Program-made: the position numbers | In this document: positions 12,001 through 15,000 of the stretch, in pieces | Layout: each line of letters starts with the position of its first letter | Position numbering within the stretch: the stretch's first letter is position 1 | Assembly (NCBI RefSeq): GCF_002854065.1 | Contig: NZ_CP024147.1 | DNA from: Escherichia coli | GTDB taxonomy: Bacteria; Pseudomonadota; Gammaproteobacteria; Enterobacterales; Enterobacteriaceae | Reading direction: 5' to 3' (one strand) | Length of the DNA: 64,000 nt

Positions 12001-15000
12001 GGTTTTAGGGACGCCTCAACGCCAAGATGTTTTGCCAGCTGTTGGGCAAATTCCACTTCAAAACCGGTTAATTTGCCGTCATCCCCCTGAAAACTGAACG
12101 GCGGATAAGTTCCTTCCAGACCTACCAGCAGCGTGCCGCGCTCTTTAACTTTATTAAGCAGACCTTCATCTGCAAAACTTTTAACGCTCATGCCCGCAAC
12201 CAGCGCCACGGCCATCACACCCATCAATGCCTGACGTCCCAGATGTGCTAATTTCATATTCACCCCGAATGTTGTTATGTCTGTTTGCAGTGTAGAGCCA
12301 TTGTTTGTAAACACAAAAACAACTCCGCTACATCTTATTCTTATTTAATATATATCAGAAGCAGGCAGGCTGGAGGATTTCTGCACAAGTCCGGTACACG
12401 TTTGACGCTGATAGTGTTGATACTTCCGTAACGCAATGCGGTAATTGTTGGTGCTGGTGGTGGGCAGCCACGGGGCGAGGATTTCATCAAGGAAACCGTC
12501 CTGCAGCTGTTCGAGGGAAATATTTTGCTCGTGTAGATGATTACCCAAACGGCGCAAACGAACGACATATTCACGCACCGTACCTGGGCTCATTTCAGTT
12601 TGCTCAAAAAGAAATTGCTTAAAGCCGATAATATCGAAAAAATCACTCTGCGTTTTGCAATGTAAATCACCGCAAAATCGGCACAATGCCGCCCATGATT
12701 TTTGTTCCGTTTGCCAGCCATTTTCATCAAGCAGCGTGTCCAGGCGGGAAATCTCGATTTTATTCACTATTTTGCCGTCGCGAACTAAGGTAATGCGATC
12801 GAGTAATTTACGGCAATGCGCGCAATGGGTCTGGCTGTGTTTAAAGTCTTTAAGATAGCGGCTTAATGGCCGTCTTTTCAGGTGCTGCACCATCATTAAG
12901 AACTCCTGGTAGTCAAAGTTAAAGTGCGGCATTTACTGACGTTATAACTTACCCAGTTTAGTGCGTAACCGTTTAATAGCCTGGCTGTGTAACTGACTGA
13001 CCCGCGATTCCCCGACCTCCAGCACCGCGCCAATCTCTTTGAGATTCAGCTCTTCCTGGTAATAGAGGGTTAATACCAGTTTTTCGCGCTCCGGCAACGT
13101 TTCGATGGCTTCCATCACCCGCTGGCGCAGATTACTGTCCAGTAGTTGTTGTAGCGGGTTTTCTCGCTGATGATCATCAGTAACCAGTTCGATGCTATCG
13201 CCGTGCTCTTCGCGCCACTCATCGTAGGAGAAGAGCTGGCTGTTATTGGTGTCGAGCAACATTTGGCGATAATCGGCAATATCGATCCCTAAACGTTCCG
13301 CTACCTCAGTTTCCGTGGCGTTGCGGCCAAGTTCCTGCTCCAGTTGCCCTATTGCCTGTGCCACTTCACGCGCGTTGCGTCGCACGCTGCGCGGCACCCA
13401 GTCACGGCTGCGAAGTTCATCCAGCATAGCGCCACGGATACGCTGCACTGCGTAAGTTGTAAATGCCGTTCCTTGTAGGGCGTCATAGCGTTCGACGGCA
13501 TTAAGTAACCCAATGCCGCCCGCCTGTAGCAGATCGTCAAGTTCCACGCTCGCGGGCAGTCGAACCTGCAGGCGCAATGCTTCGTGACGCACCAGCGGGA
13601 CATAACGCTGCCACAGCGAGTGTTTATCCATTACACCTTCAGCGGTATAGAGTGAATTCACGATAAACAGCCCTGCGTTATATGAGTTATCGGCATGATT
13701 ATCCGTTTCTGCAGGGTTTTTAATCGGACGATTAGTGGGTGAAATGAGGGGTTATTTGGGGGTTACCGGTAAATTCCATGCAGAAAAAACCCCGCCGGTG
13801 GCGGGGAAGTACGTTGCTGACAAATTACGCTTCATGTTGCCGGATGCGGCGTAAACGCCTTATCCGGCCTACAAAAATGTGTAAATTCAATAAATTGCAA
13901 TTCACCTTGTAGGCCTGATAAGCGCAGCGCATCAGGCAATTTGGCGTTGCCATCAGTCTCAGTTAATCAGGTTAGGACGATTAACCCTGCAGCAGAGACA
14001 GAACCTGCTGCGGTACCTGGTTGGCTTTTGCCAGCACGGAGTTACCGGCCTGCTGGATAATCTGCGCTTTCGACATGTTGGACACTTCGGTCGCATAGTC
14101 GGCGTCCTGAATACGGGACTGCGCTTCGGACAGGTTGGTAGTGGTGTTGTTCAGGTTGGTAACCGCGGAATCCAGACGGTTCTGGATAGCACCCAGGGAT
14201 GAACGGAATTTGTCGATGGAGCTGATAGCTTCATCCAGGGCAGCCAGAGGATCTTTGGTTGCAGTGCCTGCACTGGTGGTTTCAGTGGTCAGTTTGCCTG
14301 TAGAGTTAACATAAGCCTGTGCCCCAACAGTAGCTGCAAATTTACCAGTTGCACCTGCGCCATTTGAAGCTACAGTTACTGTACCGGTATCCTTATCGAC
14401 GTTGTAGTTGATAGTGTAAGATGCGGTTGTGGTGAGCTCTTTGTCTGCATCAGTATAGGTGTCATTCGAATTACCAGCACCATTAGTATTCACACCACCG
14501 AAGGACGCCGTTGCAGACTGAATACCTGTATTATACTTAATTGTCGCACCAGTAACTGCTGTGTTAGCCGTTGCAGCACTCTGCACTGTGCTCAGTACAG
14601 TATCAGCGCTTACAGTTTTGGTGTAGGTTACGCCAGAAGTTGCCGCTGCACCAAAGTTATAAGTTGTGCCAGACAGCTGGATAGAACCAGTTGTCGCTAA
14701 GGTACTACCGCTAGCAAACAGATCGGACAATTTCGCTGAAGATGCAATGCCGGCGTTGTTTGTAGATAGGTTACCAGTGGCGTCCAGGTACGCGGCTTTA
14801 CCACCGATGGTCACATCGCCATTAGCATCTACATCAAACTTCACATCACCAGTACTACGAGTATAAACACCTGATGCAGTAGTGCCAGCCGCTGGTTTCA
14901 GAGTATTCGCAAAGTTAACAACATCGCCATCTGCAACTGTTGCTTGAGTGGTGAAGTTCCCTTTAGCCGCATCATAAGTATAGATCGCAGCACTCGAGCC

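Follow-up and report, generated by a model that had tools for sequence, protein, structure and literature searches.

A probable orthologue of the small RNA FliX downstream of fliC in an Escherichia coli genome, and the apparent origin of much of it in a BIME-1 repeat

The 3′ untranslated region (UTR) of the flagellin gene fliC in this E. coli genome very probably (about 90%) gives rise, from position 13977 to 13784 on the minus strand, to an orthologue of FliX, a small RNA (sRNA) described in E. coli K-12, acting by the mechanism proposed below. Positions refer to the window, the whole 64,000-nucleotide stretch of contig NZ_CP024147.1 that was analysed. The feature after fliC is an already known sRNA, since the published coordinates, 5′ ends, and seed all map to the interval and the fliC promoter is conserved, and the finding of the first-pass annotation is therefore correct and not new. 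Less expected are the derivation of the seed from a repeat, the existence of paralogous modules, and the presence or absence of the element from strain to strain. The elements of the locus, apart from the repeat components given further below, are as follows.

13784..13977, minus strand: full-length FliX of 194 nt, orthologous to MG1655 fliX (b4827), placed by annotation, alignment, the 5′ end of primer SM044, and the fold
13784..13888, minus strand: FliX-S equivalent, 105 nt, consisting of the y-REP hairpin, single-stranded seed, and terminator, with the 5′ end from primer SM673
13814..13824, minus strand: seed UUUGUCAGCAA, doubling as the outer flank motif on the 3′ side of BIME-1, an exact match located with M1 primer SM644
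13784..13806, minus strand: intrinsic terminator CCCCGCC-ACC-GGCGGGG followed by U6, candidate Hfq-binding 3′ end, from the terminator scan
13981..15687, minus strand: fliC, flagellin of 568 aa, parental mRNA of FliX, from the ORF list
15764..15790, minus strand: sigma-28-type promoter of fliC, TAAAGGTT-N11-ACGATAA, from a consensus scan with 2 mismatches
12942-13661, minus strand: fliA ORF, from the ORF list
13662..13783, minus strand: fliA upstream region, outside FliX, near-invariant in all E. coli forms, Citrobacter, Enterobacter, and Buttiauxella

The annotated MG1655 ncRNA fliX (b4827; 2001912-2002106, minus strand) aligns to 13977->13784 on the minus strand of the window with 186 of 195 positions identical and one 1-nt gap (95.4%), and a table in PMC8175672 gives identical MG1655 coordinates for FliX (2,001,912-2,002,106, minus strand). 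In the RefSeq annotation, MG1655 fliX starts 3 nt past the fliC stop. The published coordinates fall inside the interval 13784-13980 of the fliC 3′ UTR on which the first-pass annotation had staked a candidate FliX locus; its 3′ end at 13784 stands, while the annotated 5′ end at 13977 lies 3 nt inside its other border. The positions of the FliX and FliX-S 5′ ends and of the M1 site derive from primers published by Melamed et al. 2023 (supplementary file 3 of PMC10578931). Primer SM044 marks the 5′ end of FliX, TTGTAACCTG in K-12 and TCCTAACCTG at 13977 in the window, and primer SM673 that of FliX-S, GAATTTGCACATT in K-12 and GAATTTACACATT at 13888 in the window. The predicted fold of the 194-nt RNA has an energy of -70.3 kcal/mol, which corresponds to z = -5.3 relative to dinucleotide-shuffled sequences.

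The window RNA thus resembles FliX of K-12 (Melamed et al. 2023, eLife 12:RP87151) in position, strand, length (194 vs 195 nt), and identity, as well as in both REPs, seed, terminator, and a sigma-28-driven parental gene. It differs by 8 substitutions, at FliX positions 2, 3, 26, 73, 96, 145, 151, and 168, the last of which makes the longer duplex predicted with rpsS less stable, by a U6 rather than a U7 tail, and by the fliC allele it accompanies, which encodes 568 aa as compared with 498 aa in K-12. The substitutions at +2/+3 give UCCU in place of the UUGU of K-12 and, with these bases altered, the processing site of FliX in this strain could shift; the earlier caution that the boundaries cannot be set from sequence alone is one we share.

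Both fliC, with its stop codon at 13983-13981 on the minus strand, and fliA are intact ORFs. They are separated by a spacer of 319 nt (13662-13980), the last 122 nt of which (13662-13783) form the fliA upstream region, so that the roughly 200 nt first given for the distance between the fliC stop and fliA hold for the stretch between the stop and the terminator's last base and not for that to fliA. Inverted-repeat, pattern, and terminator scans recovered all that had been described within this stretch, namely two inverted REPs and then a strong terminator on the fliC strand, here the minus strand. The terminator stem (13806->13790) has 7 G-C pairs and is followed by T6 at 13789->13784. Upstream, the 143 nt 5′ of the fliC ATG, comprising promoter and leader, are identical to K-12 at 142 of 143 positions; the sigma-28-type promoter sequence is thus conserved, and FliA-driven synthesis is predicted. 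A second, near-consensus sigma-28 promoter, TAAACTTT-N11-GCCGATAA, with 1 mismatch, lies at 15882-15908 on the plus strand and points toward fliD, divergently from that of fliC. Strain 100416 (human stool, Gambia) has a fliC-fliA spacer with 100% identity to that of the window; there it adjoins a gene annotated as 'FliC/FljB family flagellin' with a coding sequence of the same length.

In K-12, FliX has been described as a sigma-28-dependent sRNA that is processed from the fliC 3′ UTR and bound by Hfq, as detected by co-immunoprecipitation (PMC10578931), which bears out what the first-pass annotation had stated. That the fliC-fliA spacer harbours a separate sRNA gene driven by a promoter of its own, or that a small protein is translated from a short ORF, is most improbable. 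Two short ORFs do figure in the ORF list, at 13778-13912 on the plus strand (44 aa) and 13825-13953 on the minus strand (42 aa); however, the promoter scan returned no promoter-like site in 13784-13980, and the K-12 RNA is depleted by a 5′-phosphate-dependent exonuclease, as expected of a processed RNA and not of a primary transcript (PMC10578931). Both short ORFs were rejected as genes, as they consist almost wholly of REP/linker repeat.

For the FliX orthologue, the K-12 studies provide the functional frame. There, FliX accumulates as processed species of ~200 and ~100 nt, the shorter of which, FliX-S, holds one REP and is more potent than FliX (PMC10578931). It forms RIL-seq chimeras and represses reporters, including rplC, rpsS-rplV, and rpsQ fusions, and it leads to fewer flagella with lowered fliC mRNA and flagellin (PMC10578931). 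Binding of FliX to rpsS is abolished by the M1 mutation and regained with a compensatory change in rpsS (PMC10578931). A chromosomal seed mutant shows an increased number of flagella and unchanged motility (PMC10578931), a mild outcome from which it follows that the physiological weight of the RNA is modest.

Transferred to the window, the mechanism would run as follows. Transcription of fliC from the sigma-28 promoter would end at the intrinsic terminator (13806-13784), and processing, published for K-12, would here free the 3′ UTR as an RNA of ~194 nt and likewise the ~105-nt FliX-S (13888->13784). Binding of Hfq would involve the U-rich single-stranded arm as well as the hairpin and U-tail of the terminator, and the seed UUUGUCAGCAACG (13824->13812) would pair within the coding sequences of fliC and of the S10-operon genes rplC, rpsS, and rpsQ. 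Such pairing is expected to lower target expression and, in the late phase of flagellar assembly, to dampen flagellar genes and limit the number of flagella. Further Hfq-bound sRNAs processed from 3′ UTRs (FlgO from flgL, CpxQ, SdhX, MalH, and GadF) likewise use the parental terminator, release by processing, and expression from the parental promoter. Unlike FliX, which is mostly repeat DNA and whose seed recurs in other 3′ UTRs, they have unique seeds as far as seen.

The seed itself, GUCAGCAACG, occupies FliX positions 157-166 in the window as in K-12. The published M1 mutation changes GTCAGCAACG to GTCACGTACG, and the GCA triplet within GUCAGCAACG is intact at 13817-13815. Between the y-REP and the terminator lies an unstructured arm of 32 nt that carries the seed, and predicted duplexes of this arm with the K-12 targets reach -18.3 kcal/mol for rpsS, -21.1 kcal/mol for rpsQ, and -17.1 kcal/mol for rplC; the rpsS duplex spans the site altered in the published compensatory rpsS-M1 mutant. 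Predicted pairing of the K-12 arm with rpsS is stronger (-23.3 vs -18.3 kcal/mol for the window arm) because G168A, situated 4 nt past the UUUGUCAGCAA motif and 5 nt past the M1 triplet, costs the window arm extra predicted pairs. In the minimum free energy fold of full-length FliX, the 5′ flank (CUGAYGG) is paired with the seed (UUGUCAG), as the two BIME-1 flanks are inverted copies of each other. For the window allele, the calculated energy for opening GUCAGCA is 5.4 kcal/mol in FliX and 0.4 kcal/mol in FliX-S; for K-12, the two values differ little, at 2.8 and 2.3 kcal/mol. Cleavage to FliX-S may accordingly unmask the seed, which would fit the higher published potency of FliX-S, a suggestive correspondence only and not a robust one.

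The composition of the RNA points to a repeat as its main source. BIME-1 has been defined as a single-copy element of ~140 bp with a z1 REP, an L linker with an IHF site, and a y REP (PMC3333891, PMC1187871), and its presence or absence varies among isolates (PMC1187871). The fliC 3′ UTR contains the corresponding parts.

13963..13980, minus strand: residual ancestral 3′ UTR from the stop codon to the repeat, TCGTCCTAACCTGATTAAC, alignable with the start of the Enterobacter short-form UTR, TAATCGCCTGATTA
13814..13962, unstranded: BIME-1 composite of ~150 nt (5′ flank, z-REP, L linker, y-REP, 3′ flank), with 85% full-length identity to the artJ-rlmC copy
13909..13937, unstranded: z-type REP, the 5′ REP of the RNA, from the inverted-repeat scan
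13873..13908, unstranded: L linker of 36 nt with an IHF-like site, from the IHF scan
13839..13872, unstranded: y-type REP, the one kept in FliX-S, an exact pattern match (0 mismatches, 0.00 expected by chance)

The z and y REPs are inverted relative to each other, with arms of 16 nt that are 94% complementary, and are joined in a single copy by the long L linker, whose IHF-like site at 13885-13897, ATTCAATAAATTG, has 1 mismatch to WATCAANNNNTTR. The z-REP subtype, z1 as opposed to z2, is our assumption from its length. In composition, order, size, linker IHF-like site, one copy per locus, and presence/absence polymorphism among strains, the element resembles the BIME-1 or RIP elements of Gilson, Bachellier and colleagues (PMC3333891, PMC1187871). 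It differs from them in that one of its outer flanks has an experimentally supported role as an sRNA seed in K-12. Judged from the sequence, ~80% of the FliX RNA is a BIME-1, which would have been inserted in an ancestrally short fliC 3′ UTR, and the outer flank motif of the repeat is its seed. A search of one literature library found no paper making the point that a BIME-1 flank is the origin of the FliX seed, and the main text of the eLife study mentions REP once and BIME never (PMC10578931). A FliX family is absent from Rfam, and an Rfam search of the interval gave sub-threshold matches only, to naRNA4 (RF02564) on the y-REP (13829-13869; 42.6 bits vs a gathering threshold of 59.5) and to ES036/CssrF (RF02751) on the linker (13875-13916; 32.2 vs 37.6 bits). 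These two families, naRNA4 being REP325-derived, have REP/linker sequence in common with FliX, which reflects a shared repeat and not membership. Elsewhere in the window, at 55150-55250, a solitary y-type REP, gccggatgtggcgcgagcgccctatccggcctac, lies between inverted variants of the outer motif, TTGCCGACAAAG and TTTGTCATCAA.

The same module recurs at other loci. An artJ-rlmC spacer, which came to light in a strain without the fli region, shares 85% identity with FliX over the stretch that opens with TGAGACTGATG and closes with TTTGTCAGCAA, including both flanks besides the REPs. A metagenome scan with the pattern CGCATCCGGCA-N8-18-TTTGTCAGCAA, which requires the seed by design, returned at least 120 loci, and across these the UUUGUCAGCAA 11-mer adjoins a y-REP in no fewer than 10 genomic contexts. 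With gene names taken from record annotation and an NCBIfam search, the motif was placed past the y-REP in sense orientation downstream of seven genes besides fliC, and in antisense orientation near two others.

Sense copies: artJ-rlmC (L024:1501-1649), pfkA (L095), acnB (L105), pgm (L056), cycA (L078), luxS (L027), and uup (L138)
Antisense copies: rnr, in rnr-rlmB (L025), and ssb (L141)

At four sense copies (artJ, pfkA, acnB, and pgm), a terminator directly follows the motif, which is the layout of FliX-S. The repeat unit measures ~155 nt in 9 of the 10 contexts measured and ~138 nt in the pgm copy, and has imperfect terminal inverted repeats of ~17 nt, as judged by eye from the sequences. 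At acnB (L105) and pgm (L056), a host terminator hairpin abuts BIME-1 on both sides, matching over 23/24 nt and ~30 nt, respectively; the two-sided match is weaker at artJ (L030) and pfkA (L095) and absent at fliC. The doubled terminator at acnB, pgm, artJ, and pfkA looks like either a long target duplication or an insertion beside a terminator. In the eLife supplementary tables, artJ, pfkA, acnB, and others appear as CDS entries only, which makes those tables uninformative on the corresponding 3′ UTRs.

Forms of the fliC 3′ UTR were compared between the window (13784-13980) and loci L002, L003, L004, L007, and L009-L023. Counting a genome as full-length where at least 80% of the 319-nt spacer matched in one place, the region is present in 3502 of 5426 complete E. 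coli genomes, leaving ~35% without it. In the remaining genomes, matching is confined to the terminator and the region upstream of fliA. In the three strains in which the short form was seen (042, UC4224, and 222), ~19 nt lead from the flagellin stop to the same terminator, and both BIME and seed are missing. The two short alleles that these strains represent are carried by 817 and 208 genomes, at least 1025 together, and ~900 of the 5426 are unclassified. All 12 flagellin-fliA loci from Citrobacter, Enterobacter, and Buttiauxella are of the short form, with ~20 nt from stop to terminator. Both UTR forms of E. coli retain the terminator, and the other genera have variant versions of it. The exact arrangement of seed and terminator had 0 matches in species-representative genomes, a zero valid only outside Escherichia; in that set, the invariant fliA-upstream 20-mer hit Citrobacter, Enterobacter, and Buttiauxella, and no Escherichia or Salmonella record. 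The E. coli 042 record NZ_CP042934.2 (L002) lists fliA as a pseudogene with a frameshift. A 'Collinsella' MAG includes two contigs (L015 and L016) of E. coli fliC-fliA DNA; one carries a long allele and the other a short one, which points to contamination from more than one E. coli strain.

By parsimony, with Citrobacter, Enterobacter, and Buttiauxella as the sampled relatives, the short fliC 3′ UTR would be ancestral, and FliX would have arisen by insertion of BIME-1 between ...CCTGATTA and the terminator. FliX looks like a strain-variable product of this insertion, because its seed is a repeat flank, the relatives are short-form, and ~35% of E. coli genomes are without the full-length region. 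These observations also bear on the reading that the fliC 3′ UTR of this strain is passive, with BIME-1, ahead of the fliC terminator, both stabilising the mRNA against 3′ exonucleases and offering IHF, gyrase, or Pol I a site on the DNA, and with no RNA acting in trans. The recurrence of the composite repeat and its flank motif in many unrelated 3′ UTRs, the variable presence of BIME-1 among isolates (PMC1187871) and of the full-length fliC region among complete genomes, with the inspected exceptions short, and the mild phenotype of the published chromosomal seed mutant are all in keeping with it. Nevertheless, we regard it as improbable, in that the K-12 orthologue accumulates, binds Hfq, forms chimeras, and represses reporters, its binding to rpsS, lost with M1, is restored by the compensatory change, and seed and terminator are unaltered in the window; passive and sRNA roles are, moreover, not mutually exclusive.

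With the fliC 3′ UTR taken as the source of a FliX orthologue, a further step would be to regard FliX as a domesticated BIME-1 that was inserted in one E. coli lineage, where the outer flank UUUGUCAGCAA, placed before a host terminator, became the seed, and whose paralogous modules may act alike. We consider this broader proposal rather doubtful. If it were true, FliX-S-like RNAs may arise from the 3′ UTRs of artJ, pfkA, acnB, and pgm and either act on the same targets as FliX or vie with it for these and for Hfq, and strains with the short UTR would be without the FliX layer of flagellar control. The RIL-seq and target assignments of FliX are worth checking against the paralogous copies. FliX is not universal in E. 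coli, as it is tied to a BIME-1 insertion missing at fliC in about one third of complete genomes, and its repeat-derived seed would illustrate concretely how a mobile repeat can provide an sRNA module, made up of hairpin, seed, and host terminator, that is ready for use.
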